Shown: piece by piece, positions 2,561-64,000 of the stretch
How positions within the stretch are numbered: the stretch's first letter is position 1
Layout: the number at the start of each line of letters is the position of its first letter
Source of the DNA: Heterodontus francisci
Taxonomy: Eukaryota
Assembly: GCF_036365525.1 (NCBI RefSeq)
Contig: NC_090399.1
Location: 46,470,430-46,534,429, forward strand
Direction of reading: 5' to 3'
Length of the DNA: 64,000 bases
Translations under genes and position numbers: made by a program
Notes under the pieces: model-generated
Seen by the model: only the letters and a program-made list of their open reading frames with translations
Databases searched by the model: none
Told to the model about the DNA's origin: nothing

Positions 2561-4314
2561 CCTCCAGATCTGGCTGAATGAAATATGACATTCAGGGAAC
2601 ATTTCATGATAAAGTAGAAAGAGAAGAAAGTACAGAAAAACACATATGCATTTCTCTCATTCATTCTCATTCATTCAGAAATCTTAAAAATTGTTATGAA
2701 TTGTCTTTCCTTTGTAGCAGTGCTGCTTCAAACTGCCCCTTTTCTCTTGAGATGGGTCTGAGATAGTTATGTGTTGCCCAAGGGGTTTAAAGTTTCTTCA
2801 CTGTCAGCCTGCAATACCTTGGGAATAAGCATGTGATTTTTGGGGAGGTTTGCTTTTCACACATTTCCATGACTGTCTCGGGTGCCTTTGTTCCTGTTGA
2901 GGTCTGTAGGGGGAGGGTTAGATTTAATTAGCCCGAGTTGGGATTTCTGATGAGCACTGGGTGGATCCATTCTGATCACTCTTTCAGTGCTCTGATGACC
3001 ACCTTAGGCGCTGGTTGGTTCTCTTTCCTCTTGACTGTGTGGGAAGATTCCTTGCTAACCTTTCCTTTGTCCTCTGGGACACTCCTGCTTGCAGATATTT
3101 GTCAAGATTCTGCTGTACTCCCCTGCGGCACTTCGACGAGGTGAGGCACCACGCTCACAGCTTCTCTGCCTTCTTGAGGACTTTGTTTGTCTCTACAGGT
3201 TCTTATAAGTGCTGTTCGCAACTCTGTTGAGGCACTTCTGTTGTCTGCATTTACATTGGAGGATGTGGGAAACACGGAGCTCACAGCAGGAGAAGCCTAT
3301 TTAGTGCTGGGCCATGAAGCAGATGAAGCAGGTTCTAGATGTCTGTTGTTCTGTTGATACTTTTGTTAATTTGGTTGATGTTGTGGTCGCTGTTGTTACT
3401 GTATGTTTAACAGCCCCACCATTTGTGATTGATGCTGTCCCTGTATTTCCAGCTGCTCCACAGAGACACTCGGAGCTCACTGTTCACTGGCACTCACACC
3501 TGCTCTGTTCCCTCGAGTCATAGTGACTGTTCCGATCCACACGAATCAAATCCGGACTTGAAATGTTCTCCAAGGAAGTGAAACATGATTGAGTCCCAGA
3601 CCACTGATTGCTGACAGGGCAGTGTTGTTTCTGTGCTCTGGTGTATTGTCTCTTTTCACACTCTGTTGGGAAGTTGATTGGTTTGTGGATACTTTCTCTG
3701 ATGTGGTCGAAAAGTCTTACAAAACCATTATCATGTAGTTAATTGTCACAAGGTCTTACCCTGTTTGTCTTTTTCTGATTGGTCATTGGCACAGTTTCTG
3801 TGCTGAGATGGCTGCCAGTTTTTTTATAAACCCCTCCCTCCCTAACTCTCTCCTCAATGTGAAAATAATCTGCTGTTCTCAACAAATGACAGGAAATATT
3901 GAATATAATTGAACATCACATGGATTCCATTTGCACTGAAACCAGCAGTTCCTATATTCCTATGTTAATCCTGAGGCCTTGAAGAGAGAGATTACTGCAA
4001 GTCCCCACATGTATCAGTGCAGACAAGGCAGAGTCTGAAACTGCAACACATGGCTGGATCTTTATGAATGAGCTTGCAGCACGGGCGATCCAACCCCTGC
4101 CATTGGTCCATGCAGTCGGAAGGAGCAGCAGGACGTAGCCAATGGCAGGTTTGAAATCTGCCTTCTAAATGCTGAGGTTTCCGAGCCCTCTGGTGAGATA
4201 GCCCGAGGGGCAGAATTTCACTTCAAAATCACCTCCCGCAATAAATTTGTGAGATTTGTCATGCGTGAAATAGAAGCAGGTTTATCTCTCAGCACTGGGC
4301 AAAGACCACACAGT

Positions 4315-6710
4315 TCAACAAATAACATGCATTTATATAGCGCCTTTCAGAGAGTAAAACATCCCAAGGTGCTTCACAGGAGCGTTTATCAAACAGAATT
4401 TGACACCGAGCCACGCAAGGAGATATGAGGACAGATGACCAAAATCTTGCTGAGGTATGTTTTAAGGGACCTTTTAAAGGAGGAGAGATATGTAGAAAGT
4501 TGGAGAGATTTTTGAGGGGGAATTTCAGAGCTTAGGGAGCAGACAGTTAAAGACACATTGCTAATGGTGGAGTGATTAAAATCAGGGATTCATTCATGGA
4601 ATGTGACTGTCGCTGGCAAGGCCAACACTTTTTCCCATCTTTATCTGCCTTTGAGAAGGTGGTGGTGAGCTGCTTTCTTGAACCACTGCAGTCTGTGTGA
4701 TGTAGATACCCACAGTGCTGTTAGGAAGGGAGTTGCAGGATTTTGAACAGGTGACAGTGCAGGAACGGTGGTATAGTTCCAAATCAGAATGGTGTGTGAT
4801 TGGGAGGGAACTGCAGTTGGTGGTGTTCCTATGCACTTGTCCTTCGAGGAGGAAGAGGTCGTGGATTTGGAAGGCGCTGTCAAAGGAGCCTTGGTGAGTT
4901 GCTGCAGTGCATCTTGTAGATGGTACACACTGCTGCCACTGTGCGTCAGTGGTGGAGGGAGTGAATGTTTGTGGATGGGATGCTTTTGAAGCAGGATGCT
5001 TTGTCCTGGATGGTGTTGAGCTTCTTGAGTATTGCTCAATCATCCAGACAAGTGGAGAGTATTCCATCACACTCCTGACATGTGCCTTGTAGATGGTGGA
5101 CAGGCTTTGGGGAGCCAGGAGGTGAGTTACTCACCACAGAATTCCCAGTATCTGACCCATCTTGTAGCCACAGTATTAATATCAGAGAATCACTGAACCA
5201 CAGAATTGTTACAGCACAGAAGGAGGCCATTCGGCCCATCGTGTCTGCTCCAGCTGTCCTAATGAGCAATTCACTTAGTGCCATTCTCCCGACTTCACCC
5301 CATAACCCTGTACATTCTTGCTTTTCATGAAACTATTTTGAACTTTTGAACCTCGATTGAATCTGCCTCCATTACACTCTCAGTCAGTACATTCCAGATC
5401 CTAACCACTGACTGAGTGAAAAAGGTTTTCCTCATGTCATCAAATGTCTGGTCCAGTTCAGTTTCTGGTTAACGGTAATCCCCAGGATGTTGAGAGTGGA
5501 GGATTCAACGATGGTAATGCCGTTGAATGTCAAGTGGAGATGGTTAGATTCTGTCTTGTCGGAAATGGTCATTATCTGGCACTTGTGTGGTGCGAATGTT
5601 ACTTGCCATTTATCAGCCCAAGTCTGAAAGTTATCCGTGTCTCGCTGCTTGTGGACACGGACTGCTTCAGTCTCTGACGAGTCATGAATAGGACTGAACA
5701 TTGTGCAATCATCAGTGAACATCCCCACTTCTGACATTTATGATGGAGGGAAGGTCATTGATGAAGCAGCTGAAGATGGTTGATCTAGGAAACTACTCTG
5801 AGGATACCCTGCAGTGATGTCATGTAAATCCAACCATTGGAGAGTTTTCCACTTTGTTCCCATTGACTCCACTGTTGCTAGGGCTCCTTGATGCCACATT
5901 CAGTCAGATGCTGTCTTGATGTCAAGGGCAGTCACTCTCACCTCACGTCTATTCCATGTTTGAACCCAGGCTGGAACGAGGTCTGGAGCTGATTGGCCCT
6001 GGCGAATTTGGAGGAGTGCAGGTATCTCAGCGGGCTTAGAGCTGGAGGAGATTGCAGAGATAGGGAGGGGCAAGGCCATGGAGGGATTTGAAAACAAGGA
6101 AGAGACATTAAAACAGAGGCATTGATTGATCGGGAGTCAATCTCAGTCAGCAAACATGGGGTGATGGGTAATCGGGACTTGGTGCGAGTTAGGACATGGG
6201 CAGGAGAGTTTTGAATGAATTGAAGTTTATGTCGGGTGGAATTGGGAGTCTGAGCAGGAGTGCATTGGATTAGTCAGGAACAGAGGGAACAAAAGAATGA
6301 GAGAGTTTCAGCAGCAGATAAGCTGAGACAAGAGCGGAGTTGGATGATGTTGGGGAGGTGGAAATAGGCCGTCTTAATGGTGGCATGAAAGAAGGTCAGA
6401 AGTTCATCTCGGGGTCAAATGCAAAGTCTGGGATCAGCCTGGGATAACTTCCAGGGAGAGGGATGGAGTCGGTAGCGAGGGAATGGAGTTTGTCATGGGG
6501 ACCAAAGACAATGGTTAAGGTTTTCCCAATGTTTGGTTGCAGGAATTTTCTGCTCATCCAGTACTGGATGTCGGATAAGCAGTCTGATAGTTTCAACACA
6601 GTGGAGGGGTCGAGAGAAGGGGTGGTGAGGTAGAGCTGAGTGTTGTCAGGGTACGTGTGAAAACTAATGCTGTGCTTTTGGATAATGTTGCTGAGGGGCA
6701 GCAAGTTGCT
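4315..6710 (-). mobile_element. L2-type LINE remnant (RT 3' part and 3' end), interrupted by a nested LINE
   Basis: ORF 6396-6704 MLPLSNIIQKHSISFHTYPDNTQLYLTT resembles the L2 RT YADD region. L2-like 3' end reads ...CATTTATATAGCGCCTT on + near 4330. Confidence 0.7.
4592..6003 (-). mobile_element. CR1-group LINE fragment nested in the L2, with a further small CR1 3' piece at about 5184-5435
   Basis: ORFs with GMFTDDCT (FADD motif), WADKWQVTFAPHKCQ and MEYSPLVW. Confidence 0.75.
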
Positions 6711-7034
6711 GGGAAATAGGAGGAGGACAAGGATCGATCCTGAGGATTGACAGTGCAGGAATAGGAAGAGGAGCCATTGATGGTGATTCAGTGGATTCGA
6801 TTAGATTGAGAAGAAGGCAGACGAGTATTGTCACATCCAGCTGGTTCCTGTGCCTTCTGACCACTTCCTGAAGATACTGTCATATCACATTTGATGCTAA
6901 AATAGGAGATGCAGAGCAAAAGTGGCAGAAAATAAATATTATTAAAATTCTGAAATTGTAATACAAGTATAAGGAAAGGAAGGGTTTGAAATGGGAGAGC
7001 TGGAGCACAGCAAGTAAAAATGAACAATTTATTT

Positions 7035-7676
7035 GCACAGTTGGAGGGTCAGTACTGAGGGAGTGCTGTACAGTCAGAGGGTCAGTACTGAGGGAGTGCT
7101 GCACCGTCGGAGGGTCAGTACTGAGAGAGTGCTGCACTGTCGGAGGGGCAGTACTGAGGGAATGTTGCACTGTCAGAGGGTCAGTATTGAGGGAGTGCTG
7201 CACTGTCAGAGGGTCAGTGCTGAGTGAGTGCTGCACCGTCGGAGGATCAGTACTGAGAGAGTGCTGCACTGTCAGAGGGGCAGTACTGAGGGAGTGCTGC
7301 ACTGTCAGAGGGGCAGTACTGAGGGAGTGCTGCACTGTCAGAGGGTCAGTATGGAGGGTGTGCTGCACCGTCGGAGGGTCAGTACTGAGGGGCTGCTGCA
7401 CTGTCAGAGGGTCAGTATTGAGGGAGTGCTACACTGTCAGAGGGTCAGTACTGAGGGAGTGCTGCACTGTCAGAGGGGCAGTACTGAGGGAGTGCTGCAC
7501 TGTCAGAGGGGCAGTACTGAGGTTGTGCTGCACTGTCCGGAGGGGCACTACTGAGGGCGTGCTGCACTGTCTGGAGGGGTGGTACTGAGGGAGTGCTGCA
7601 CTCTCCGGAGGGGCAGTACTGAGGGACTGCTGCACTGTAGGGGGTCAGTACTGAGGGAGTGTTGCACTGTCAGAGG
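7035..7676 (+). repeat. 33-bp minisatellite (GTCAGAGGGTCAGTACTGAGGGAGTGCTGCACT), about 19 copies
   Basis: Direct tandem units; 11-aa periodicity (QHSLSTDPLTV) in the spurious ORFs. Confidence 0.95.
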
Positions 7677-7679
7677 TGC

Positions 7680-8410
7680 CCCCCTTTTAATATTGACCTC
7701 TTAAGTTTAAACTGCCTTTCCTCATTCTTCCTTCCAAAATACATGAGTTCACACTTCTCTGCATTAAAACTCAGCTGCCGTATGCCTGCCCATTTCACCA
7801 GTCTGTCTAATGCAATCTTGGCCATTATCTCTGTGGGGTAAGGGGTGCTGGAATACAAAGTGGTGGATGTTATACATCAGTTGTACTGAATCTTGGTCAG
7901 ATCCCACCTGGTTCAGTTCAATCTGTGAACAGCATCTCAGAGAAGATCATTTTTCCTTGGAGAGGGTGCAGGGCAGGTTCACCAGAGAGATATATTGGCT
8001 TAAAGGGATGTTACCTCAACTTGGCTTGTATTCCCTGGATTATAGAAGTTTGAGTGGTGATCTAAATGAGATTTTTTAAGATTAAAATAGTGTTGATACA
8101 GGAAAATGATTCCCTGTGGTGGGCAATCAAGAATGAGGGGGTATAATCTTAATATTAGAGCTTGGCTGTTTAGGAGGGAAATCAGGAAATTTTTTTTGCA
8201 CATAAACTGTCGAAAACATCTGGAACTCATTCCTCCAATGGATGTTGGACAATTGAAGTTTTTAAAACTGAGAGCAATATTTTTTATTGGCTAATGGAAT
8301 AAGGGATTTGGAGAAAAGCTGGGAAAATGGAATTAAGGTGCAGGTCAGCAATGATCTAATTGAATGGTGTAGCTGGCAGAGGGGCTGAATGGCCTCCCTC
8401 AGTTCCAAAT
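7680..8410. mobile_element. Degenerate CR1 LINE fragments (short - piece then + 3' piece)
   Basis: LDRLVKWA...FNAEKCELMYFGRKN on -; LERVQGRFTR and GYNLNIR...FRREIRKFF on +. Confidence 0.7.
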
Positions 8411-8486
8411 GTTGTTCCCTCTTGTCACTTTCTGTGTCAAACTTTTATCCTCCCTGGCAATTGTTGAAGGAACTATGAGTTTTTAT

Positions 8487-8650
8487 CTGATTGGATAATT
8501 TATGATGTTTGAAAAATTTATTTTTGTCCCCAAGTCACAGTCTGGACCTGAGTCACATCCTGTTTTTATTCTGATTGGCTCCATGGAATGGTCTTGCCCA
8601 ATCAGTACAGAGGTTTCTGAGCAAATGGAATAATTCGCTGGTTTAATACA
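8487..8650 (+). promoter_or_regulatory. Putative MHC class I promoter: X2-like/AP-1 TGAGTCA, Y box CTGATTGG, extra CCAAT boxes, TATA-like TTTAATA
   Basis: TGAGTCA at 8549-8555 is followed 15 nt later by CTGATTGG at 8571-8578. Further CTGATTGG near 8487, CCAATCAG near 8598 and TTTAATA near 8642. Lies directly upstream of the class I gene. Confidence 0.6.
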
Positions 8651-8660
8651 GTCAGGAAAT

Positions 8661-9757
8661 GACACAACTCACAGACTGAGAGACACATTATCAGTACAGG
8701 ACACGGGTCACAGACTGAGAGACACAGTATCAGTACAGGACACGGTCACAGACTGAGAGACACAGCATCAGTACAGAACACGGGTCACAGACTGAGAGAC
8801 ACAGTATCAGTACAGGGCACAACTCACAGACTGAGAGACACAGTATCAGTACAGGACACGGGTCACAGACAGAGAGACACAGTATCAGTACAGGACACAG
8901 CTCACAGACAGAGAGACACAGTATCAGTACAGGACACAGCTCACAGACTGAGAGACACAGTATCAGTACAGGACACAGGTCACAGACTGAGAGACACAGT
9001 ATCAGTACAGGACACGGGTCACAGACTGAGAGACACAGTATCAGTACAGGACACAGGTCACAGACTGAGAGACACAGTATCAGTACAGGACACGGGTCAC
9101 AGACCGAGAGACACAGTATCAGTACAGAACACGGTCACAGACTGAGAGACACAGCATCAGTACAGGGCACAACTCACAGACTGAGAGACACAGTATCAGT
9201 ACAGGACACGGGTCACAGACAGAGAGACACATTATCAATACAGGGCACAGCTCACAGACTGAGAGGCACAGTATCAGTACAGGGCACAGCTCACAGACTG
9301 AGAGGGACAGTATCAGTACAGGACACGGGTCACAGACTGAGAGACACAGTATCAGTACAGGGCACAGCTCACAGACTGAGAGACACAGTATCAGTACAGG
9401 ACACAGCTCACAGACTGAGAGACACAGTATCAGTACAGGACACGGGTCACAGACTGAGAGACACAGTATCAGTACAGGACACGGGTCACAGACCGAGAGA
9501 CACAGTATCAGTACAGGACACAACTCACAGACCGAGAGACACAGTATCAGTACAGGACACGGGTCACAGACTGAGAGACACAGTATCAGTACAGGACACG
9601 GGTCACAGACCGAGAGACACAGTATCAGTACAGGACACAACTCACAGACCGAGAGACACAGTATCAGTACAGGACACGGGTCACAGACTGAGAGACACAG
9701 TATCAGTACAGGACATGGGTCACAGACCGAGAGACACAGTATCAGTACAGGACACAG
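8661..9757 (+). repeat. 39-bp VNTR (ACAGACTGAGAGACACAGTATCAGTACAGGACACGGGTC), about 28 copies
   Basis: Homogeneous tandem units ending about 80 bp before the ATG; 13-aa periodicity in the antisense ORF 9119-9640. Confidence 0.95.
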
Positions 9758-9836: not shown

Positions 9837-9885
9837 ATGATTGGTCTGATTGTGCTGGTCCTTCTATGTGGAGGGGGCTCTGCTG
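9837..9885 (+). CDS. MHC class I exon 1, signal peptide [16 protein letters not shown]
   Basis: ACAATGA start context, hydrophobic leader, G|GTGAGT donor, phase 1. Confidence 0.88.
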
Positions 9886-12800
9886 GTGAGTACTGGGGTC
9901 TGTGATGGGCAGTGTCAATCTGGGTAATGGGGCATTAACCCTTGGTCAGTGGGTAATGTGGTCTGAGAGGTTTTCAGTGCCAGGCTGGATACTGGGGGTG
10001 AGACGAAAAGAGAAAGACCGTAGTTGGGGCAGACTGGGGGGGGGGATCAGCCTGGTTTCTGAGAGACTGGGGCACGGGGCTGGAGAGTGAAGAACATAGT
10101 AACAGGAGCAGGTCGTTCAGCCCTTCGAGCATATTCTGCCTCTCAACTGGATCATGGCTGATCTGTAACACAACTCCACTTTCCACCTTTGCTCTCTTTG
10201 CCCTGATACCCTCTTCTAACAAAAATCTATTGCTGTCAGTTTTGAGAGCTCTAAGTGACTCCCAACATCCACAGCCTTTTGATGGAGAGAGTTCCAGATT
10301 TCCACTGCCCTTTGTATGAAAACAGTGTTTCCTGATTTCACTCCTGAACAGCTTGACTCTAACTTTAAAATGATGTTATCTGGTTCTCGATTTAACCACC
10401 AGATAAAATTGTTCCTCTCGATCTACCCTATTGAATCCTTTTAACATTTTAAACTCCTCGATCATTTCCTCACATTTCCCCACATTGAACAACATCTGCC
10501 ACAGTTTTATCTGCTCTATTAATCCATCAATGTTCTTCAGCACTTTCCTGTCACTGTCCACACAATTTACTGTGCTACCTGACTTAGTGTTGTGAGCAAA
10601 CTCAGATAAACAAGTCTCTGGGGTGAAATTCGGGAATGGCGCCCCCAGCTCACACTGTGTTCACAGCACAAGCTCAAATGCTGAGATCTGTGGAGCCTGG
10701 ATTTTTGGCCTTGCACCTCACCGTTCTCTAGATGATGCTGGAGGAGGAGGCCACACAGATTAGTGCCCCAGGTTCCAGCTAACTGATCGGGTTGGATCAC
10801 AGTGGGTCTGGAGGAGGAATGAGTGGGGCTCAGAATGAGTGGTGTGGGGTGCAGTTGAGGATTGGGGAGAGAGAACACAGGCCATGGGAATATCGTTTGG
10901 GGTTGGGAAAGATCTGTGGGATTGGAGGAATGGGGTTGTTACTTTTTTCTTCATTCATGTCCCTCTATGTCTGTTCAGTGTTTTGTGTTTGTCAAACATT
11001 TTTACCATTCTTTGAAGATATGTCAAGCAGGGTAGATACAGAGGAGGTGGTAAATGCAGTGTATTTGGATTTCCAAAAGGCATTCGATAAGTTGCCACAA
11101 AAAAGATTATGATTCAAGATAGCAGCTCCTGGTGTTGGGGGATATTCTTCTTCTTTGGCCTCCTTATCTCGAGAGACAATGGGTAAGCGTCTGGAGGTGG
11201 TCAGTGGTTTGTGGAGCAGCGCCTGGAGTGGCTATAAAGGCCAATTCTAGAGTGACAGGCTCTTCCACAGGTGCTGCAGAAAAATGTGTTTGTCGGGGCT
11301 GTTACACAGTTGGCTCTCCCCTTGCGCTTCTGTCTTTTTTCCTGCCAACTGCTAAGTATTTTCGACTCGCCACACTTTAGCCTCGCCTTTATGGCTGCCC
11401 GCCAGCTCTGGCGAACACTGGCAACTGACTCCCACGACTTGTGATCAATGTCACAGGACTTCATGTCACGTTTGCAGACGTCTTTAAAGCGGAGACATGG
11501 ACAGCCGGTGGGTCTGATACCAGTGGCGAGCTCGCTGTACAATGTGTCTTTGGGGATCCTGCCATCTTCCATGCGGCTCACATGGCCAAGCCATCTCAAG
11601 CGCCGCTGACTCAGTAGTGTGTATAAGATGGGGATGTTGGCCGTCTCGAGGACTTCTGTGTTGGAGATACGGTCCTGCCACCTGATGCCAAGTATTCTCC
11701 GGAGGCAGCGAAAATGGAATGAATTGAGACATCGCTCTTGGCTGACATACGTTGTCCAGGCCTCGCTGCCGTAGAGCAAGGTACTGAGGACACATTCTTG
11801 ATACACTCGGACCTTTGTGTTCCGTGTCAGTGCACCATTTTCCCACACTCTCTTGGCCAGTCTGGACATAGCAGTGGAAGCCTTTCCCATGCGCTTGTTG
11901 ATTTCTGCATCTAGGGACAGGTTACTGGTGATAGTTGAGCCTAGGTAGGTGAACTCTTGAACCACTTCCAGAGAGTGGTCGCCAATATTGATGGATGGAG
12001 CATTTCTGACGTCCTGTCCCATGATGTTCATTTTCTTGAGGCTGATGGTTAGGCCAAATTTATTGCAGGCAGCCGCAAACCTGTCGATGAGACTCTGCAG
12101 ACACTCTTCAGTGTGAGATGTTAAAGCAGCATCGTCAGCAAAGAGGAGTTCCCTGATGAGGACTTTCCGTACTTTGGACTTCGCTGCCCCCTGATCTTGT
12201 GTGGAGGAAAATTCCTTCTTCAGAAGACTTGAACACATGTGAGAGCAGCAGGGAGAAAAAAATCCCAAAAAGTGTGGGTGCGAGAACACAGCCCTGTTTC
12301 ACGCCACTCAGGACAGGAAAGGGGTCTGATGAGGTGCCGCTATGTTGAATTGTGCCTTTCATATTGTCATGGAATGAGGTGATGATACTTAGTAGCTTTG
12401 GTGGACATCCAATCTTTTCTAGTAGTCTGAAGAGACCACGTCTGCTGACGAGGTCAAAGGCTTTGGTGAGATCATGAAAGCAATGTAAAGGGGCATCTGT
12501 TGTTCGTGGCATTTCTCCTGTATCTGACGAAGGGAGAACAGCATGTCAATGGTCGATCTCTCTGCTCGAAAGCCACACTGTGCCTCAGGGTAGACGGGCT
12601 CGGTCAGCTTCTGGAGCCTGTTTAAAGCGACTTGAGCAAAGACTTTCCCCACTATGCTGAGCAGGGAGATTCCATGGTAGTTGTTGCAGTCACCGCGGTC
12701 ACCTTTGTATTTATAGAGGGTGATGATATTGGCATCACACATGTCCTGAGGTACTGCTCCCTCGTCCCAGCACAGGCATAGCAGTTCATGTAGTGCTGAG

Positions 12801-15800
12801 AGTATAGCAGGCTTGGCACTCTTGATTATTTCAGGGGTAATGCTGTCCTTCCCAGGGGCTTTTCCACTGGCTAGAGAATCAATGGCATCACTGAGTTCCG
12901 ATTTTGTTGGCTGTACGTCCAGCTCATCCATGACTGGTAGAGGCTGGGCTGCATTGAGGGCAGTCTCAGTGACAACCTTCTCCCTGGAGTACAGTTCTAG
13001 GTAATGCTCAACCCAGCAGTCCATTTGCTTGCGTTGGTCAGCGATTATGGCCCCTGATTTAGGGGGGCGATCTTCTTGATGGTTGGCCCAAAAGCTCTCT
13101 TAATGCCATCATACATTCCTCTGATGTTTCCGGTGTCTGAGGCCAGCTGAATATGACTGCATAGGTGTTGCCAGTAGTCATTTGCACAGCGCCTGGCTGT
13201 TCTTTGTGCAGTGCTTCTGGCTGCTTTAAGTGCTATGGATGTTAACTCGCTGGGGGCTTTCTTGTAGTTCAACAGTGCAATGCGCTTAGCGGCTATGACT
13301 GGTTCCAGCTCTTCAGTATGAGATTGAAACCAGTCTGAGTGTTGGGGGATATATTAACATGGATAGAGGATTGGTTAATTAACAGCAGCATTGTATCTGT
13401 CTTCAGCAGCACTTTGGGGATGATGTACGCGGGTCATCAACCATGCACAAAGTGGGTAACCCTTGTCACCCAGGATCCAGCCGTCCAGTTCGGCTGCTTC
13501 CGCAAAAACCCCTGGCAACTGTGAGTTTCTCAAAATGTATGATCGTGACAGCTCCCTGGGAAACGTGCACAAACGTGCGTTAATATTCTCCTGTGGTTAC
13601 AAACAACTTGTATGTTTAAAGAGTGGAAGCCTTTGTGATTCACAAATGCGGCAGGCTGGTCCCAGGGAGCTCTAATGGCCACATGAGGACAGTCGATCAC
13701 CCCTTACACTCCAGAGAACCCAATGGTTGTACCAAAGGCTGCAGAATTTATGTCTGGCTGTCCCTGTCTGCAGCTAAGTAGGTGAAATCATTGGCACGTC
13801 GAGAAAGAGCATGGGTCACCTCTTTGATAGACCTGTGAGTCGTCGACTGTGATATGCCACATATGTCACCCGTCGATCCCTGGAAGGTCCCGTTTGCAAC
13901 AGAAATTAAGTGCAGCGGTCACCTTGAGGGCAACTGGCATGTGATTCCCACTAAAGGTTGGCTCAGGCCTGCAACTGAAACCCAACCCGAGCCTGACAGA
14001 ACCACATCCGACCCGAGCCTGACCTGGTCCGGGTCCTTTCATTTTTTCCTGTGCCCGACACGACCTGACCCGACCACTGGAATGAAGTTGATTATACTAA
14101 AGAGGTTGTGCTCTACCTTGGATGGAATCGCTGACTGTAGACAAGTGCGGAGTCTGGATGTATGTTTCCCGCCTTGACGTCCTGGCTGTCAATGTGTCCA
14201 AGCTGGCCCGACCCGACCCGAGCCTGAATGCCGGACCCGGAAGAGGCACCCGACCCAAACCCGACATATGTCTTCGGGCCCGGTTGGGTTCGGGTCGGGT
14301 AGCCACGCTTTGATTCCCACCGAAGCTGAGTGGCTGCAGGTCATGCTGCAGGATCCTGTAAATTTCTGTGACCATTTCACGTGACATCCTCAGGGGTCTC
14401 TGGCATTGCCTCTCTGACATGTGAAGGTAATCTGCCCTTGTTCTTAGGATGTGATGATGTGCCAGTGTCTGTCTTCGATAAGGCCATTCCTGGATGTCCT
14501 CATTCGGAGTATCCTCACCTTCCTTTTCTGCCTGTTGCTGTCGTTCAGGCATCATGCATTGAGGGAAAAGAGCCCTCCTGAATCTCTCCCTTTGTTCTTC
14601 ATCCTGTGGTACGAGACAAATTGGGTGTATGAGACCAATGTCACTGTCGTCGTTCTTAACAATAAATAAGCAGAGTGTGGCAGTTCAGCCCTCTGTTACC
14701 AGTCAGCTGAAGCATCGAAGCAATGAACAGTTCATTTTTTATGTGCCTTAGATTTTCAGTCCAGTGAAAGACACACCGACTATTGTTTTCTCCTCCCACT
14801 CTCCTTGCAATCCATGAGTGGCCATGCGGCTTGTATTATTGGAGAAAATGGTGCGTCTAGAATTCAGGGCACCTCCCCTCACCTTCCAACCACCTCCTGC
14901 CACCGTCCAGCCTGAGCCCGTCATCTTTGACCCGCCAAATATAACCTTAACCATTCTCTTCATTACCATCGATCCTCTCCCAGTACCGTGCATAGTGTCA
15001 TAATCAACTGATTCGTGCCATTCCTTCCTCCCTTTTACTGGTCCCGTTGCTATCGATGAGCCAATTCTGACCCCGGAACCTCCTCACATCGACCTGACCA
15101 TTGTTGTCGAGTCCTGTTCCCCTCCCTTTCATATTTGTAGAATACACAACCCTAAGTCTTGACCTTCCCCCACCTACAGAATCCATTGATCCCCATTGAA
15201 TCTGACCATTCCATCCACCAGCCAGTATCCTGAATTCGCCCCACAGGTCCCTGATATTGACAGTGCTCATCCCTCCCTTTAGGCCCCTCATGACCATTTG
15301 CTGACTGCAAAACTCAAATCAACCCTCCACCTCAGAAGCTGCCCACAGCCAGCTTCAGCAGCAATAGCAACCACTGCCCACCCAGGACATTCCCCTCCTC
15401 CCTCCCCTACTCCTCCACGCAGCCAATCACCCCACCATCTCCTCTCCTCCTCCCTCCCCTGTTCCTCCATGAACTCGATCACTTTACCCTTTATCCTCCG
15501 CTTCTCCTCCCCTGCTCCTCCAGGCACCTGATCACCCCACCATGTCTTCCCCTCCTCCCTCCCCTACTCCTCCATGCAGCCAATCACCCCACCATGTCTA
15601 CCCCATCTTCCTCCCCTGCTCCTCCAGGCACCCGATCACCCCACCATGTCTTCCCCTCCTCCCTCCCCTACTCCTCCACGCAGCCAATCACCCCACCATG
15701 TTGACCCCATCTTCCTCCCCTGCTCCTCCAGGCACCCGATCACCCCATCATGTCTTCCCCATCTTCCTCCCCTGCTCCTCCAGGCACCCAATCACCCCAT

Positions 15801-45350: not shown

Positions 45351-45351
45351 A

Positions 45352-48723: not shown

Positions 48724-49333
48724 AAGGCTGAATTTTATGTGCCCCCCAGAGATGGGCTAGGAGGTGGGCCCATAGAATTGCAATGGGAGGCAGGGCAGAG
48801 GGTTCGTCACCTTCCTGTCGCATCGCAATTTAGTCAGGGGTGTGATAGGCTGATGACGACCTTCCTGCTCAGAGGACAATTGAGGACCTTCAGAGGCCCA
48901 TTAACAGCTATTTAAGGGTGTCAAACCCCTGCCACTAGCATTCAGCCAGTGATAACCTGTACAACGGTGCATCAACAGCCATATTTGCATCCCACCTGTC
49001 CCACATCCAGAAACCCCCTCCGCAATACATCCTATATCCAAATGCTCATATACACTAAGATCTCCCTTTCACCATGTTCCAACCTTCCTGCACCATTTCC
49101 AGCAATTGGGGAGCCAAGATCCATCCTCCTAGTACTCCCAAACTCAAGGACCACACCTCACCAATATTCCCAGCCACCACTCCTCCTCCATTCCTTCCTC
49201 ACTTCACTTCTCCTCCCACTGCTCCCACATCCCAGATCGCCCTCCCAACATTACCAGACCTCACAATCGTTAGAACATGTGGAGGCAGGGGCTCGTAGCA
49301 GGACGGTTAGTAAATTGGCTACAAAACAGAGAC

Positions 49334-51975: not shown

Positions 51976-53736
51976 TGGATTTATGGAGATAGCAGCTCGG
52001 ATTAGGGATTAAGGGTAAGCACTCAGACTGGTGAAACTTGGGATGTGGTGTTCCACAGGGATCGGTGATAAGAGCACTGTTGTTCACCATTCAAATAAAT
52101 GATTTGGACAAGAGAATCGGCAGCACAATTTCAACATTTACACAAGACATCAAATTGAGGGAAGGGTAAGGTGGCTGGGGTATAGTAAATAATAAGGAAG
52201 ATTGTGACAAAATACAGGAAGACATGATTAAATTTACAGAATTGGTGTGTAGTCCGTGTTACACTCATCTGATTCCTGCTTAATATTGATTTTCTAGGAG
52301 GTATTATTCATTCTCAGTGCCAGACACTGAACACATACTTGATCTGGAAAGGGAGCCTTTCAAATTTCTGAATATTGAAACATCTGGTTAATTTATGCCC
52401 TCAGTATCGGCAGAATGGACCTTTTCCAAATGATCGTTCTTAGACGTGGACCTTAGAAACACGGAGCTCACAGTAGGAGAAGCCTATTTAGTGCTGGGCC
52501 ATGAAGCAGATGAAGCAGGTTCTAGATGTCTGTTGATCTGTTGCTGCTTTTGTTAATTTGGTTGATATTGTGGTTGCTGTGGTTACTGTACGTTTAACAG
52601 CCCCACCATTTGTGATTGATGCATTTCCAGCTGCTCACTGTTCACTGGCACTCACACCTGCTCTGTTTCCTCGAGTCATAGTGACTGTTCCAATTCACAC
52701 GAATCAAATCCGGACTTGAAATGTTCTCCAAGGAAGTGAAACATGATTGAGTCCCAGACCACCGATTGCTGACAGGGCAGTGTTGTTTCTGTGCTCTGGT
52801 GCATTGTCCCTTTTCACACTCTGTCCGGAAGTTGATTGGTTTGTGGATACTTTCTCTGATGTGGTCGGAAAGTCTTACAAAACCATTATCATGTGGTTAA
52901 TTGTCACAAGGCCTTACCCTGTTTGTCTTTTTCTGATTGGTCATTGACACAGTTTCTGTGCTGAGATGGCTGCCAGTTTTTTTATAAACCCCTCCCTCCC
53001 TAACTCTCTCTCTCCTCAACATGAAAATAATCTGCTGTTCTCAACAGATGAAAGGAAGTATTGAATATAATTGAACATCACATGGATTCCATTTGCACTG
53101 AAACCAGCAGTTCCTATATGTTCCGATATTCCTATGTTAATCCTGAGGCCTTGAAGAGAGAGATTACTGCAAGTCCCCACATGTATCAGTGCAGACAAGG
53201 CAGAGTCTGAAACTGCAACACATGGCTGGATCTTTATGAATGAGCTTGCAGCATGGGCGATCCAACCCCTGCCATTGGTCCATGCAATCAGAAGGAGCAG
53301 CAGGACGTAGCCAATGGCAGGTTTCAAATCCGCCTTCTAAATGCTGAGGTTTCTGAGCCCTCTGGTGAGATAGCCCGAGGGGCAGAATTTCACTTCAAAA
53401 TCACCTCCCGCAATAAATTTGTGAGATTTGTCATGCGTGAAATAGAAGCTATTGTAGGTTTATCTCTCAGCACTGGGCAAAGACCACACAGTTCAACAAA
53501 TAACGTGCATTTATATAGCGCCTTTCAGAGAGTAAAACATTCCAAAGTGGCTCACAGGAGCATTTATCAAACGGAATTTGACACTGAGGCACATAAGTAG
53601 TTGTCAGGATAGATGACCAAAAGCTTGGTCAATGAAGTATATTTTAAGGAGCCTTTTAACGAGCAGAGATGGGTAAAGATTTGGAGAGATTTAGCGTGGG
53701 AATTGCAGAGCTTAGGGAGCAGGCAGTTAAATACAC

Positions 53737-54710
53737 ATAGAATCATCGAGTCATCGAACCATTTACACCACAGAGGTTAGCCATTCGGCCCATCGAGTCC
53801 ATGCCTGCTGTCCACAGAGCTATCCAGTTAGTCCCAATCCAACACCCAATCCCTGTAGCCCTGCAAGACTATTTCCTTCAAGTGACCAGCCAATATCCTT
53901 TTGAAGTCATCGCTCGTCTCCGCTTCCACCACCCTGGAGGGCAGCGAGCTCCAGATCATTACTGCCCGCTGTGTAAAAAAGTTCTTCCTTATATTCCCCC
54001 TGCATCTCTTGCCCAAAACATTCAAGCTGTGTCCCTGGTCCTTGTACCATTCGTTAATGAGTACAGTTTCAACTTGTCCACCTTATCTAAGCCTGTCAGA
54101 ATCTTGTACACTCCTATCAAATTTCCCCTCAATCTCCTTTGATCCAAGGAGTTCAAAACCATATTTTCAAACCTAACCTTGTAACTGAAATCCTCCATCC
54201 CTGGAACCATTCTGGTAAATCTCCTCTGCACCCTCTCAAGGATACTCACATCCTTCCTGAGGTGTGGTGACCAGATGGAATACTCTGGTTGGAGCCTAAC
54301 CAGAGCTTTATAAAGGTTCAGCATAACTTCCCTGCTTTTCTACTCGATGCCTCCATTTATGAAGCCCAAGATCCCATATACTTTACCAATCACTCTCTCA
54401 GTATGTCCTGGCACCTTCAAAGATTTATGCACATGAACCCCCAGATCCCTCTGTTCCTGCACACTCTTTAGAACTGTGCCATTCAGCATATATTGTCTTT
54501 CCCTATTCTATCTGACAAATTTCATCACCTCACACCTGTCCGTATTAAATTCCATTTGCTACCTCTCTGCCCATTCTGCGAGCCTATCAATATCCTGTTG
54601 CAGGCGGTTCACATCATCCTCACTGCCGCACCACCAATGTTAGCGTCACCAGCAAATTTTGAGAATTTACTCTGTATTGCAAGATCCAAGTCATTTATAT
54701 GTAGCAAAAT
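53737..54710 (-). mobile_element. CR1 LINE 3' fragment specific to copy B
   Basis: LYKALVR...[14 protein letters not shown]...RRLRGNLIGVYKIL. Confidence 0.85.
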
Positions 54711-54967
54711 AAAATGGTGGAGCAATTAAGATCAGGGATGCTCAAGAGGCCAGAATTATTTATTTTCTTTTTTTATTTATTTATGGGCTGTAGGCATCGC
54801 TGGCAAGTCCCATTTATTTATTTCGAATCGCTAACTGCCATTGAGAAGGTGATGGTGAGCCACCTTCTTGAACCGCTGAAGTCCATGTGGTGTAGCTACA
54901 CCCACGGAGCTGTTAGGAAGGGAATTCCAGGATTTTGACCCAGCGACAGTGAAGGAATGGCAATATA

Positions 54968-57900
54968 AGAACAAAGAACAAAGAACAGGACAGCACAGGA
55001 ACAGGCCATTCAGCCCTCCAAGCCTGCGCCGATCTTGATGCCTGCCCAAAACTGAAAGCTTCTGCACTTCCGGGGTCCGTATCCCTCTATTTCCTTCCTA
55101 TTCATGTATTTGTCAAGATGCCTCTTAAACGTCGCTATCGTACCTGCTTCCACCACCTCCCCTGGCAGCAAGTTCCAGGCACTCACCACCCTCTGTGTAA
55201 AGAACTTGCCTCGCACATCCCCTCTAAACTTTGCCCCTCTCACCTTAAACCCATGTCCCCTAGTAACTGACTCTTCCACCCTGGGAAAAAGCTTCTGACT
55301 ATCCACTCTGTCCATGCCGCTCATAACTCTATCATGTTGCCCCTCCACCTCCGTCGTTCCAGTGAAAACAATCTGAGTTTATCCAAACTCTCCTCATAGC
55401 TAATGCCCTCCAGACCAGGCAACATCCTGGTAAACCTCTTCTGTACCCTCACCAAAGCCTCCACGTCCTTCTGGTAGTGTGGTGACTAGAATTGCACACA
55501 ATATTCTAAGTGTGGCCTAACTAAAGTTCTGTACAGCTGCAGCATGACTTGCCAATTTTTATACTCTGTGCCCCGACCGATGAAGGCAAGCATGCTGTAT
55601 ACCTTCTTGACTACCTTATCCACCTGCATTGCCACTTTCTGTGACCTGTGGACCTGTACGTCCAGATCTCTCTGCCTGTCAATACTCCTAAGAGTTCTGC
55701 CATTTACTGTATACTGCCCACCTGTATTAGATCTTCCAAAATGCATTACCTCACATTTGTCCGGATTAAACTCCATCTGCCATTTCTTCGCCCAAGTCTC
55801 CAACCGATCTATATCCTGCTGTATCCTCTGACGATCCTCATCACTGTCCGCAACTCCACCAACCTTTGTGTCGTCCGCAAACTTCCTAATCAGACCAGCT
55901 ACATTTTCCTCCAAATCATTTATGTATACTACAAACAGCAAAGGTCCCAGCACTGATCCCTGCGGAACACCACTAGTCACATCCCTCCATTCAGAAAAGC
56001 ACCCTTCCACTGCTACCCTCTGTCTTCTATGACAGAGCCAGTTCTGTATCCATCTTGCCAGCTGACCTCTGATTCCGTGTGTCTTCACCTTTTGTACCAG
56101 TCTGCCATTAGGGACCTTGTCAAAGACTTTACTGAAGTCCATATAGATAACATCCACTGCCCTTCCTTCATCAATCATCTTTATCACTTCCTCAAAAAGC
56201 TCAATCAATTTAGTGAGACACAACCTCCCCTTCACAAAACCATGTTGCCTCTCGCTAATAAGTTTGTTTGTTTCCAAATGGGAGTAAATCCTGTCCCGAA
56301 GAACATTCTCTAATAATTTCCCTTCCACTGACGTAAGGCCTATAATTTCCTGGATTATCCTTGCTACCCTTCTTAAACAAAGGAACAACACTGGCTATTC
56401 TCCAGTCCTATGGGACCTCACCTGTAGCCAATGAGGATGCAAAGATTTGTGTCGAGGCCCCAGAAATTTCTTCCCTTGCCTCCCTCAGTATTCTGGGGTA
56501 GATCCGATCAGGCCCTGGGAACTTATCTACCTTAATGCTTTGCAAGAAACCCAATACCTCCTCCTTTTTGATAATGAGATGACTGAGACTATCTACACTC
56601 CCTTTCCCTAGGATTGTCATCCACCAAGTCCTTCGCTTTGGTGAATACTGATGCAAAGCACTCATTTAGTATCTCGCCTATTTCCTCTGGCTCCATACAT
56701 AGATTCCCTTCTCTGTCCTTGAGTGGGCCAACCCTTTCCCTGATTACCCTCTTGCTCTTTATATACATATAAAAAGCCTTGGGATTTTCCTTAATCCTGT
56801 TTGCCAATGACTTTTCATGATCCCTTTTAGCCCACCTGACTCCTTGCTTAAGTTCCTTCCTACTGTCTTTATATTCCTCAAGGGATTCGTCTGTTCCTCG
56901 CCTTCCAGCCCTTACAAATGCTTCCTTTTTATTTTTGACTAGGCTCACAATATCCCGCGTTATCCAAGGTTCCTGAAACTTGCCAAACATATCCTTCTTC
57001 CTCCCAGGAACATGCCGGTCTTGGATTCTAATCAACTGACGTTTGAAAGACTCCCACATGTCAGATGTTGATTTACCCTCAAACAGCCACCCCCAATCTA
57101 AATTCTTCAGTTCCTGCCTAATATTGTTATAATTAGCCTTCCCCCAATTTCGCACCTTCACCCGAGGACTACTCTTATCCTTATCCACAAGTACCTTAAA
57201 ACTTATGGAATTATGGTCACTGTTCCCGAAATGCTCCCCTACTGAAACTTCGACCACCTGGCCGGGCTCATTCCCCAATACCAGGTCCAGTACGTCCCCA
57301 TCCCTAGTTGGACTATCTGAATATTGTTTCAAGAAGCCCTCCTGGATGCTCCTTACAAATTCTGCCCCATCCAAGCCCCGAGCACTCAATGAGTCCCAGT
57401 CAATATAGGGGAAGTTAAAATCACCCACCACTACAACCCTGTTACCTTTACATCTTTCCAAAATCTGTCTACGTATCTGTTCCTCTAACACCCGCTGGCT
57501 GTTGGGAGGCCTGTGGAAAACCCCTAACATCGTGACTGCACCCTTCCTATTCCTGAGCTCCACCCATATTGCCTCACTGCATGACCCCCTCCGAGGTGTC
57601 CTCCCGCAGTACAGCTGTGATATTCTCCTTAACCAGTAATGCAACTCCCCCACTCCTTTTACAGCCCCCACTATCCCGCCTGAAGCTTCTAAATCGTGGA
57701 ACATTTAGCTGCCAATCCTGTCCTTCCCTCAACCAAGTCTCTGTAATAGCAACAACATCATAGTTCCAAGTACTAATCCAAACTCTAAGTTCATCTGCCT
57801 TACCTGTTATACTTCTCGCATTGAAACAAATGCACTTCAGACCACCAGTCCTGCTGTGCTCCACAACATCTCCCTGCCTGCTCTTCCTCTTAGTCTTACT

Positions 57901-59556
57901 GGCCTTATTTACTAGTTCCCCCTCATTTATTTCACTTGCTGTCCTACTGCTCTGGTTCCCACCCCCCTGCCACACTAGTTTAAACCCTCCCGAGTGACAC
58001 TAGCAAACTTCGCAGCCAGTAAGTTTGTGCCCCTCCAGTTTAGATGCAACCTGTCCTTCTTGTACAGGTCCCATCTGTCCATGAAGAGAGCCCAATGGTC
58101 CCGATATCTGAAACCCTCCCTTCTACACCAGTTGTTCAGCCACGTGTTTAGCTGCACTATCTTCCTATTTCTAGCCTCACTGGCACGTGGCACAGGGAGT
58201 ACACCCGGGATTACAACCCTGGAGGTCCTGTATTTTAACTTTCTACCAAACTCCCTAAACTCCCCCTGCAGGACCTCATCACTCTTCCTGCCTATGTCGT
58301 TGGTACCGATGTGTACCACAACCTCTGGCTGTTCACCCTCCCCCTTCAGAATGCCCCCTGTCTGTTCAGAGACATCCTTGACCCTGGCACCAGGGAGGCA
58401 ACATACCTTCCTGGCGTCTCTTTCACGTCCACAGAAGCGCCTATCTATGCCCTTGACTCTCGAGGCCCAATTAACTATTGCTCTTCTGCGCTTTGTCCCT
58501 CCCTGCTGAACAACAGTGCCAGCCGTGGTGCCACTGCTTTGGCTGCCGCTGTTTTCCCCTGATAGGCCATTCCCCCTCAACAGTATCCAAAACGATATAC
58601 TTGTTAGAGAGGGGGATAGCCACAGGGGATTCCTGCACTGACTGCCTGCCCCTTCTGGCTGTCATCCATCTACCTGCCTGTACCTTGGGTGTAACCACTT
58701 CTCTGAAACTCCTGTCTATGACGCTTTCCGTCACCTGCATGCTCCTAAGTGCATCCAGTTGCTGCTCCAACCGATCCATGTGGTCTGTGATGAGCTGCAC
58801 TTGGTACACTTCCTGCAGATGTAGTCATCCGGAACGCTGGAAGCGTCTCGGACCTCCCACATCTCACAGGTGAAGCACTTCACCCCTCTAACTGACATTT
58901 CTAGCACTAATTAAAAAATTAATTTAAAATAAATAAATGCTTATTAAATCCTTACTAAATTGTTATAATTAACAATATGGTCCCAAATGCTAGATTCCTA
59001 CTATAAATATTAAATGCTAACTAAATACAGTAATCTCCTCCCTCTGGTTTAGTTACTCTACTTATTAATTAGTTAATTAGGGTTTTAATCAATTTTTATC
59101 AATGTTTTATTTTCAAATTCAGTAAAAATTCCCGACCAGCCAATCAGGTCACAGCTTTCCTGTGATGTCACTTTCAGTTTTTTTTACCAGATGTAGGTTT
59201 TTTATACTTACCGGTCTGGAACTCCGCCCTTCAAGTCTTCTCCCTGGATGCAGGCCACAAAACCCCGAGGTAAGTTTTTTTATACTTACCGGTCTGGAAC
59301 TCTGCCCTCCAAGTCTTCTCCCAGTCAGCTGTGCTCTTTGGAAGCTCTCGGTTCTCCTCACTCTGAGGACAGGTAGGAAATGAAAGGAGCTCCTCACTCC
59401 CTCCTCACTGAACTTCCTCAGTTACCAAACTTCCACTATAGCATTCTAATGCAACCCAAGTCAGCACACTAGTGCAAACAAAGTCAGCACTGCAGGATGG
59501 CTCACTTTTATACTGACTGACTCTAGCCACTGAAAACTGGTTTAAGCCAATTGTCT
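54968..59556 (-). mobile_element. Near full-length CR1 LINE (5' UTR, ORF1 with SGNH esterase domain, ORF2 APE endonuclease plus RT), frameshifted
   Basis: ORF1 CCLPGARVKDV...VVHIGTNDIG...DRLHLN (57975-58809). APE motifs FNARSI, ITETWL, GDFN, LDLVL, SDHN. RT motifs [22 protein letters not shown]. (AAGAACA)n 3' tail at 54968. Confidence 0.93.
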
Positions 59557-61574
59557 AATAGTTCCAAGTCAGGATGGTGTGTGGCTTGGAGGGGAACTTG
59601 CAGGTGGTGGTATTCCCATTACTCTGTTGCTCTTGTCCTTCGAGCAGGTAGAGGTCATGAGTTTGGAAGGTGCTGCCAAATGAGCTTTGGTGAGTTGCTG
59701 CTGTGCATCTTGTGGATGGTACGCACTGCTGTCACTATGCGCCGGTGGTGGATGCGGTGCCAATCAAGCAGGCTGGTTTATTTTGCATCACACTGAGTTT
59801 CTTGAGTGTTGTTGGAGCTGCACTTATTCAGGCAAGTAGGGAGTATTCCATCATACCCCTGACTTGTGCCTTGTAGATCGTGGAAAGGCCTTGGGGAGTC
59901 AGGAGGTGAGTTACTTGCTGCAGAATTTCCAGCCTCTGATCTGCTCTGATCTGCTCTTGTGGCAACAGTATCTTCAGGCTGATCCAGTTAATTTGTTGGT
60001 TAATGGTAAACCTCACGATGTTGAAAGTGGAAGATTCAGCACTGTTGAATGTCAATGGGATATGGTTAGATTCTCTTTGTTGGAGATGGTCATTGCCTGG
60101 GACTTGTTCAGCACAAATGTAACTTGCCATTTATCAGCCCAAGCCTGGATGTTGGCCAGGTCTTGCTGCATATGGACATGACCTACTTCAATATCTGAGG
60201 AGTCATGAATGATACCGAACATTGTGCAATCATCAGCGAACATCCCCACTTCTGATCTTATGATGGAGGGAAGGTCATTGATGAAGCAGCTGAAGATGGT
60301 TGGGTCCAGGACACTAGCTTGAGGAACTCCTGCGGTGATGTCCTGCAGCTGAGATGATTGACCTCCAACAACCACTACCGTCTTCCTTCGTGCTAGGTAC
60401 GATTCAACCAGTGGAGAGTTTTAACCCTGATTTCCATTGACTTCAATTTTGTTGGGACTCCATAATGCCACACTTGGTCAAATGCTGTCCCATGTTCATG
60501 TTTGAACCCAGGCAGTAATGGCTGGAGATGAGAGTCCATAGCGGAATTGGAGGAGTGCAGATATCTCAGAGGGGTTAGAGCTGGAGGAGATACAGAGACA
60601 GGGAGGGGCCAGGCCATGGAGGGATTTGAAAACAAGGAAGAACATTTGAAAATGGAAGCATTGCTTGATCGGGAGTCAATGGAAGTCAGCAAGCACGGGG
60701 TGATGGGTAATCGGGACTTGGTGCGAGTTAGGACATGGGCAGGAGAATTTTGAATGAATTGACGTTGATGTCGGGTGGAATTGGGAGTCTGAGCAGGAGT
60801 GCATTGGATTAGTCAGGAACAGAGGGAACAAAAGGATGAGAGAGTTTCAGCAGCAGATGAGCTGAGACAAAAGCGGAGTTGGGTGATGTTGGGGAGGTGG
60901 AAATAGGCCGTCTTAATGGTGGCATGAATATAAGTTCAGATGTTCATCTCGGGGTCAAATGCAAAGTCTGGGGTCAGCCTGGGATAACTTCCAGGGAGAG
61001 GGATGGAGTCGGTAGCGAGGGAATGGAGTTTGTCATGGGGACCAAAGACAATGGTTAAGGTTTTCCCAATGTCTGGTTGCAGGAATTTTCTGCTCATCCA
61101 GTACTGGATGTCGGATAAGCAGTCTGATAGTTTCAACACAGTGGAGGGGTCGAGAGAAGGGGTGGTGAGGTAGAGCTGAGTGTTGTCAGGGTACGTGTGA
61201 AAACTCATGCTGTGCTTTTGGATAATGTTGCCGAGGGGCAGCAAGTTGCTGGGAAATAGGAGGAGGACAAGGATCGATCCTGAGGATTGACAGTGCAGGA
61301 ATAGGAAGAGGAGCCATTGATGGTGATTCAGTGGATTCGATTAGATTGAGAAGAAGGCAGACGAGTATTGTCACATCCAGCTGGTTCCTGTGCCTTCTGA
61401 CCACTTCCTGAAGATACTGTCATATCACATTTGATGCTAAAATAGGAGATGCAGAGCAAAAGTGGCAGAAAATAAATATTATTAAAATTCTGAAATTGTA
61501 ATACAAGTAGAAGGAAAGGAAGGGTTTGAAATGGGAGAGCTGGAGCACAGCAAGTAAAAATGAAGAATTTATTT

Positions 61575-63627
61575 GCACAGTTGGAGGGTCAGTACTGAGG
61601 GAGTGCTGCACAGTCAGAGGGTCAGTACTGAGGGAGTGCTGCACTGTCGGAGGGTCAGTACTGACGGAGTGCAGCACTGTCAGAGGGGCAGAAGTGAGGG
61701 AGTGCTGCACTGTTGGGGGTCAGGACCCAGGGAGTGCTGCACTGTGAGAGGGTCAGTACTGAGAGAGTGCAGCACTGTCAGAGGGTCAGAACTGAGGGAG
61801 TGCAGCACTGTCAGCGGGTCAGCACTAAGGGTGTGCTGCTCCATCAGAGGTTCAATAATGAGCGAGTGCTGGACTGTCAGAGGGTTAGTAATGAGGGAGT
61901 GCTGCTCTGTCAGAGGGACAGTATTGAAGGAGTGCTGCTCTGTCAAAGGGTCAGTGCTGAGAGAGTGCTGCACTGACGGAGGGTAAGTACTGAGGGAGTG
62001 CTGCATTGTCAGAGAGTCAGTACTGAGGGAGTACTGCACTGTCAGAGGGTCAGAACTGAGGGTGTCCTGCACTTTCAGAGGGTCAGCACTGAGGGAGTGC
62101 TGCATTGTCAGAGGCTTAGTAATGAGGGAGTGCTGCACTGTCGGAGGGTCAGTACTGACGGAGTGCAGCACTGTCAGAGGGGCAGAAGTGAGGGAGTGCT
62201 GCACTGTTGGGGGTCAGTATTGAGGGAGTGCTGCACTGTGAGAGGGTCAGTACTGAGAGAGTGCAGCACTGTCAGAGGGTCAGAACTGAGGGAGTGCAGC
62301 ACTGTCAGCGGGTCAGCACTGAGGGTGTGCTGCTCCATCAGAGGTTCAATAATGAGCGAGTGCTGGACTGTCAGAGGGTTAGTAATGAGGGAGTGCTGCT
62401 CTGTCAGAAGGTCAGTACTGAGGGAGTGCTGCTCTGTCAGAGGGTCAGTACTGAGGGAGTGCTGCTCTGTCTGTCGGTCAGTAAACAGGGAGTGCTGCTC
62501 TGTCTGTCGGTCAGTACTCAGGGAGTGCTGCTCTGTCTGTCGGTCAGTACTCAGGGAGTGCTGCTCTGTCAGAGGGACAGTATTGAAGGAGTGCTGCTCT
62601 GTCAAAGGGTCAGTGCTGAGAGAGTGCTGCACTGACGGAGGGTAAGTACTGAGGGAGTGCTGCATTGTCAGAGAGTCAGTACTGAGGGAGTACTGCACTG
62701 TCAGAGGGTCAGTACTGAGGGAGTGCTGCACTGTCAGAGGGTCAGAACTGAGGGTGTCCTGCACTTTCAGAGGGTCAGCACTGAGGGAGTGCTGCATTGT
62801 CAGAGGCTTAGTAATGAGGGAGTGCTGCACTGTCAGAGGGTTAGTACTGAGGGAGTGCTACATTCTCAGAGGGTCAGTATTGAGGGAGTGCTGAACGGTC
62901 AGAAGTTCAGGACTGATGGAGTGCTGCACTGTCGGAGGGGCAGTACTGAGGGACTGCTTCACTGTCAGAGGTTCAGTAATGAGGGAGTGCTGCACTGTTA
63001 GTGGGTCAGTGCTGAGAGTGCTGCACTGTCAGAGTGTTAGGACTGATACAGTGCTGCACTATCAGAGGGTCAGTAATGAGGGAGTGCTGCACGGTCGGAG
63101 AGTCAGTACTGAGGGCGTGCTGCACTGTTAGGGGTCAGTACTGAGTGTGTGCTGCACTGTCAGAGGGTCAGTACTGAGGGAGTGCAGCACTGTCAGAGGG
63201 TCAGTACTGAGGGAGTGCTGCACTGTCAAAGGGTCAGCACTGAGGGAGCGCTGCTCTGTCAGTGGCTCAGTAATGAGGGAGTGCTGCACTGTCAGAGGGA
63301 TATTTCTGAGGGAGTGCTGCTCTGTCAGAAGGTCAGTACAGAGGGACTGCAGAATTGTCAGAGGGTCAGCACTGAGGGAGTGCTGCTCTGTCAGAGACTC
63401 AGTACTGAGGGACTGCTGCTGTGTCAGTGGGTCAGTACTGAGGGACTGTAGCACTGTCAGAGGGTCAGTTCTGAGGGATTGCTGCAGTGTCAGAGGGTCA
63501 GTTCTGAGGGACTGCTGCACTGTCAGAGTGTCAGTATTGTTGGAATGCTGCACTGTCAGACGGTCAGTAATGAAGGTGTGCTGCACTATCGAGGGTTAGT
63601 ACTGAGGGAGTGCTGCACTGTCAGAGG
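61575..63627 (+). repeat. 33-bp minisatellite, about 60 copies (paralog of 7035-7676)
   Basis: Same unit and same flanks as copy A, with higher-order block duplication. Confidence 0.95.
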
Positions 63628-64000
63628 TGCCCCCCCTTTTAACATTGACCTCTTACGTTTATATTGCCTTTCCTCAATCTTCCTTCCAAAATACATGTGT
63701 TCACACTTCTCTGCATTAAAACCCAGCTGCCGTATGCCTGCCCATTTCACCAGTCTGTCTATTGGAATCTTGGCCATTATCTCTGTGGGGTAAGGGGTGC
63801 TGGAATACAAAGTGGTGGATGTTATACATCAGTTGTACTGAATCTTGGTCAGATCCCACCTGGTTCAGTTCAATCTGTGAACAGCATCTCAGAGAAGATC
63901 ATTTTTCCTTGGAGAGGGTGCAGGGCAGGTTCACCAGAGGGATACATTGGCTGAAAGGGATGTTACCTCAACTTGGCTTGTATTCCCTGGATTATAGAAG

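Follow-up and report, generated by a model that had tools for sequence, protein, structure and literature searches.

At least two loci have the upstream flank of a non-classical MHC class I gene in common, and one copy of this flank lies towards each end of the window, the 64,000-nucleotide stretch of Heterodontus francisci DNA analysed here. The sequence at 3269-8048 (copy A), upstream of the intact class I gene, recurs colinearly and on the same strand at 52456-64000 (copy B), where it is cut by the window end. An earlier note had claimed such a colinear repeat about 49-56 kb downstream, and five self-BLAST blocks bear this out; the note had set the window end at the equivalent of position 8049, nearly the position found (A 8048). 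The likely reading is that a paralogous non-classical class I locus, either a gene or a pseudogene, follows head-to-tail directly after 64000 and that copy B is its upstream flank.

The five blocks, all on the same strand, pair A 3269-4558 with B 52456-53738 (1838 bits), A 4610-4768 with B 54797-54960, A 4773-5155 with B 59558-59939, A 5448-7033 with B 59979-61573, and A 7679-8048 with B 63631-64000, at offsets ranging from 49,187 to 55,952. As a control, A 3269-4558 was compared with 50 base-shuffled copies of B, which gave a best score of 29 bits. Between the last two blocks lies, in register, a 33-bp minisatellite common to both copies, with 19 copies of the unit in A (7044-7676) and 62 in B (61584-63627); outside it, only 3,699 columns align. 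Copy B spans 11,545 bases and exceeds copy A (4,780 bases) by 6.8 kb because of two LINE insertions of about 1.0 and 4.6 kb and the expansion of the minisatellite. An insert of about 0.3 kb (about 5156-5447) is found in A only, and the part of A that is repeated in the window comes to only 4.8 kb.

The left edge of the homology is abrupt at 3269/52456, and A 1400-3268 and B 48730-52455, to the left of the breakpoints, shared no sequence at E below 0.05. This sharp border fits a simple duplication breakpoint at that position, or older homology erased by transposons. The sequence at 3269-4558 had one match within the window, at 91-96% identity, and no long reading frame that would suggest a gene is kept in both copies of this block, the longest being 84-118 aa. 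Several elements keep the same order in A and B. The repeat is a segmental duplication, given its colinear unique sequence and a transposable element junction common to both copies; independent insertions of transposable elements were ruled out as its cause by the unique sequence, the element order and this junction.

Identity between the two copies forms a mosaic along the plus strand. The first outer tract of A (3269-4397) is 96.5% identical to 52456-53575, the second (6091-7043) is 97.4% identical to 60629-61583, and the third (7679-8048) has 12 differences in 370 bases against 63631-64000 (96.8%), so that colinear homology continues at this level to the last base of the window. The middle tract (4398-6090), made of LINE-derived host sequence, is about 82% identical to B (81-82% in four pieces). 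Differences amount to 75 of 2,422 columns in the outer tracts versus 232 of 1,277 in the middle tract (chi-square p about 1e-55), corresponding to K2P distances of 0.03 versus 0.21; the three outer tracts are nearly equal to one another (0.036, 0.027 and 0.033). All three copy-specific insertions fall within the middle tract, namely the A-only insert, a LINE fragment found in B only (53739-54715, no strand assigned, right border approximate), and a near-full-length minus-strand LINE, also B-only, at 54961-59557, with GDSL-esterase, endonuclease and reverse transcriptase frames (PF13472, PF14529 and PF00078). A search for target-site duplications at five junction pairs found none beyond 5-6 bases and is thus uninformative.

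The middle tract of A contains a nested 3' fragment of a minus-strand LINE, with an RVT_1 match at 5432-5737 (Pfam). Copies A and B leave this LINE at the same position and re-enter host sequence at the same base, whereas a third copy of the LINE family in the window continues differently past the junction, as read from the alignment; the middle tract was therefore shared by descent. In four comparisons, A and B were 81-86% identical over this tract, and either was 75-83% identical to the third family copy, which was marginally closer in one of them. The A-B identity is thus near that to the third copy, and the homology of the middle tract rests on the junction, not on identity.

Matches to Pfam were obtained for 10 of the 14 repeat-derived ORFs scanned, the other four being without one. 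Two young copies of one LINE 3' end (43080-44228 and 54973-56112) are mutually inverted and 92.8% identical; one of them splits a 19-bp satellite and the other is part of the B-only insertion. The spacer at 34850-48740 also carries a local inverted duplication, in which an element of 2.4-2.6 kb occurs in three copies, at 35146-37711 and, inverted relative to the first, at 39319-41899 and 45566-47914. These copies are 86-87% identical, and each adjoins a 19-bp satellite. Their degenerate frames recall what we take to be Harbinger transposase; the one ORF of this element scanned against Pfam had no match. The segments at 1-2560 and 31300-34700 are presumably diverged remnants of LTR-retrotransposon-like elements with minus-strand gag-like frames, and they are about 70% similar in short pieces. 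The remnant at 1-2560 lies next to the sequence on the left of the duplication border, where it may conceal older homology. A 206-base direct repeat (31596-31801 and 33559-33764; 91.7% identity) apparently represents two copies of a short interspersed element.

The class I gene downstream of copy A is intact, with six plus-strand exons spanning 9837-27237, AG/GT borders, phase-1 introns and an open frame of 354 aa. A leader exon with the ATG and a GT donor (9837-9885, 49 bases) is followed by exons for alpha 1 (17559-17819, 261 bases, AG/GT with the frame kept), alpha 2 (24813-25085, 273 bases), an alpha 3 domain of Ig C1 type (25965-26228, 264 bases), the transmembrane segment (26668-26772, 105 bases) and the cytoplasmic tail to the stop (27125-27237, 113 bases). 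We take these domain assignments from cysteine spacing and motifs, read by eye. By our reading, also by eye and with HLA-A2 numbering placed by motif without an alignment, two of the eight peptide-anchoring residues are kept (W147 and Y159). We take positions 7, 59, 84, 143, 146 and 171 to be replaced, in the same motif-based numbering. With most of the peptide-anchoring residues lost, the gene is non-classical (MHC-Ib). The N-glycosylation site that usually closes the domain (position 86) is presumably missing from the alpha 1 exon, whose translation carries a different N-x-S site at an earlier point of the helix.

No second class I gene was found within the window, as tblastn of the translation and blastn of each exon matched the gene of copy A only. 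One leader-like match of 31 bases (42165-42195; E 0.002) falls within a repeat, and we ascribe it to chance. No other host genes were recognised in the ORF lists of the window, and Rfam returned no matches over the 64 kb; in the MHC-linked cluster that holds UEA, the flanking genes are brd2/b2m and hsd17b8/rxrb/slc39a7/col11a2. The introns of the class I gene contain large minisatellites and simple repeats that sit near exons: a 52-bp unit in 24.5 copies in intron 1 (15391-16666), a degenerate array of 16-22-bp units in intron 2 (18072-19165), and a 26-bp unit in 23 copies in intron 3 (25075-25904). Intron 1 also holds a minus-strand LINE with a reverse transcriptase and a few frame breaks (11115-13330), with weak RVT_1 matches below the Pfam cut-off. 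Two neighbouring poly(A)-signal hexamers at 28700-28715, about 1.5 kb past the stop, are a candidate transcript 3' end.

A putative promoter was located by motif scan at 8487-8662 (plus strand), with CCAAT/Y-box-like motifs at 8487, 8571 and 8598 and an ISRE/Ets-like motif at 8654; the promoter roles of these motifs are presumed. Between it and the ATG is a 39-bp minisatellite (8669-9755, plus strand, 28 copies, 1.1 kb), whose unit has a 10-base word in common with the motif context at 8598-8610. To judge by its letters, this minisatellite looks as if it were an expanded piece of the promoter or 5' UTR. The earlier note had put the window end at the equivalent of a point about 0.5 kb before the promoter and 1.8 kb before the ATG of copy A, distances with which our measurements agree: the end corresponds to a point 0.44-0.6 kb before the CCAAT/Y-box-like motifs and 1,789 bases from the ATG equivalent (9837). 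A second promoter would thus be expected about 0.5 kb past 64000 and a second leader exon about 1.8 kb past it, barring further insertions.

To follow the flank past the window-end equivalent, contigs of four runs among the 20 listed, all from one public sample, were compared with 7680-8650 at 86% likeness. Two of these runs (X2 and X3) yielded nearly identical contigs, and the four runs of one sample are not independent; contig depth was not taken as copy number, and contigs can drop variants. Part of 25905-29500, the 3' region of the gene, is covered by 15 of the 20 listed runs; the listing shows no RNA run covering it. A contig present in both X2 and X3 has the letters of B at 7988, 7993 and 8001 and extends to 8107, which takes it beyond the window-end equivalent by 59 bases, and it has one additional base following 8072. 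Two versions of 8078-8221 start at its end, one identical to A and one with 13 differences from A (X2, X3 and X4). Further non-A versions, both from X4, cover 8015-8172 (12 differences and three gaps versus A) and 8426-8537 (14 differences; listed in one of three DNA runs). Non-A versions in contigs of this one sample thus cover parts of the plus-strand stretch 8049-8537 at 87-92% identity. A third version, at about 92%, occurs in contigs at 7714-7886 and 8015-8172, and X4 holds three versions over 8078-8172, which in a diploid implies at least two loci. Two loci, one of them heterozygous, would account for three versions in one run, as would more loci. At position 8468, the A-type contig is accompanied by two others that differ from A.

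The attribution of these versions to copy B is conditional. Copies A and B are identical over 8002-8048 and no listed contig spans the whole stretch, so that overlap is the only tie between the downstream versions and B. In one contig, A-type and B-type letters are combined over 7714-7886, showing that contigs here can be chimeric.

Closest to the promoter, the contig at 8426-8537 alters the distal CCAAT-like motif at 8491 and has 67 of its 179 letters unaligned. From its shared start at 8426 and its first difference at 8456, these 67 letters most likely lie beyond 8537, which would place the point where the non-A version parts from A some 30 bases ahead of the two proximal CCAAT-like motifs. 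The stop at 8537 may reflect an insertion, a fall below the 86% threshold or the end of homology. Among the contigs listed, at the 86% threshold and for one sample, just one version covered the proximal promoter elements; 8538-8650 is represented by an A-type contig only, a blank that was not counted as absence.

The paralog that the earlier note predicted just beyond the window end thus finds support in the duplicated flank and in the non-A versions past the window-end equivalent, while no exon of a second copy was seen. We regard a class I gene or pseudogene downstream of 64000 as likely, and an intact gene there as about an even chance. Copy B could instead be an orphan duplicate of the flank, with homology cut off near the equivalent of A 8540, by the limit of the duplication itself or by a deletion or insertion since then, and with no class I exon after it. 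The deepest non-A contig near the promoter, which stops fitting at 8537 with 67 letters unaligned, would be consistent with this, as would the sharp left border, the repetition of only 4.8 kb of A, and a spacer rich in LINEs and local rearrangements. However, identity falls from 97% to 87-92% toward the promoter, and an old paralog at about 82%, the level of the middle tract, would slip under the 86% threshold while still continuing; repeated homogenisation of an old pair of flanks is also easier to explain beside paralogous genes, and clusters of several MHC-Ib copies spaced like this are on record. We therefore consider an orphan flank unlikely. Far less credible still is an assembly artefact in which the other haplotype of a single locus was placed in tandem. 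The 97% outer tracts could be divergent MHC alleles, and our evidence comes from contigs, not raw reads; yet the middle tract, with about 18% divergence and three private insertions, is excessive for ordinary alleles, and the three versions in X4 over 8078-8172, together with the two non-A contigs at 8468, are impossible from one diploid locus.

The mosaic would be consistent with a history that began with the insertion of the nested LINE in the middle tract, followed before long by an old segmental duplication that made both loci. The copies would then have diverged by about 20% and gained separate LINE insertions, and later gene conversion or unequal crossing-over among paralogs would have brought tracts of about 1 kb and about 2 kb back to roughly 3% divergence. 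We infer this order of events, as we do the assignment of the non-A versions to B and the presence of class I exons after them. The history could also run in reverse, with B a recent duplicate of A (about 3%) and one middle tract derived from a third, older paralog, which would mean at least three related loci. Such a single recent event would account for three outer tracts nearly equal in divergence, and the version of about 92% identity described above for 7714-7886 and 8015-8172 might belong to the older paralog. Nonetheless, the required donor is absent from the window, and this 92% version might instead represent A's second allele, since depths near 1:2:1 fit two loci, one of them heterozygous; we hold this reversed order to be possible but rather improbable. 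Both the old duplication and the reversed order need an old family of related loci exchanging DNA.

The earlier note went further, to a tandem array built of 50-55 kb units. The 49-56 kb is the spacing of the two flanks, and a repeat unit of that size is at most suggested by it; two loci explain the data, and an array of three or more copies would go beyond them. If the second locus is confirmed, this region would add a further pair of loci to the multi-copy MHC-Ib clusters known from sharks and would aid the annotation of a region that is poorly handled by assemblies and gene callers. The dated mosaic may be of wider use, with LINE junctions recording an old duplication and recent exchange of flanks between paralogs. 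More speculatively, paralogous MHC-Ib loci might exchange distal upstream DNA, as in the 97% tracts, while the proximal promoter is kept apart; this reading draws on the 87-92% identity at 8050-8537, the altered CCAAT-like motif and the departure before the proximal motifs, and we think it improbable. If true, each copy would have its own promoter on a shared and repeatedly reset flank, allowing different expression of young MHC-Ib copies.

The earlier note pointed to shark UEA, a multigene family; this locus might belong to UEA, to UBA or to another lineage, and its protein is, as judged by eye, without most peptide-anchoring residues. Work by Almeida et al. (2021, J Immunol) reportedly deals with the shark UEA lineage. 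According to passages in PMC10751288 and PMC12562908, UEA is an expanded non-classical class I family of sharks, and UBA is multicopy like UEA. In elasmobranchs, passages of Verissimo et al. 2023 (PMC10751288) place single-copy UDA with multicopy UEA, and a multicopy UBA cluster separately. The supplement of that paper has 45 MHC-Ib rows (18 from white shark, 17 from catshark and 10 from sawfish). In the white shark, 13 of the 18 rows fall within 578 kb, about 44 kb each, six on the plus and seven on the minus strand, and in the sawfish four consecutive plus-strand rows start 64-98 kb apart. Like this locus, these clusters lie in repeat-rich DNA and have tens of kb between neighbouring non-classical loci. 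They differ in that the second locus here is known from its flank alone, and the white shark cluster is of mixed orientation, not a regular head-to-tail array. In our limited search, the elasmobranch MHC passages of PMC10751288 gave no description of flank mosaics or exchange such as those seen here, and one may be in print. Clusters of several MHC-Ib copies with a spacing like this one are already on record for sharks and rays in those passages (PMC10751288). Among primates, passages in PMC12674619 describe alpha-block and MHC-B units duplicated as blocks, in which class I genes multiply with their flanks and pseudogenes and gene fragments are possible. The primate blocks differ in belonging to another lineage, and no repeat unit is delimited here. 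A duplicated flank with a probable second gene is an ordinary arrangement for multi-copy immune genes and represents no new kind of system.
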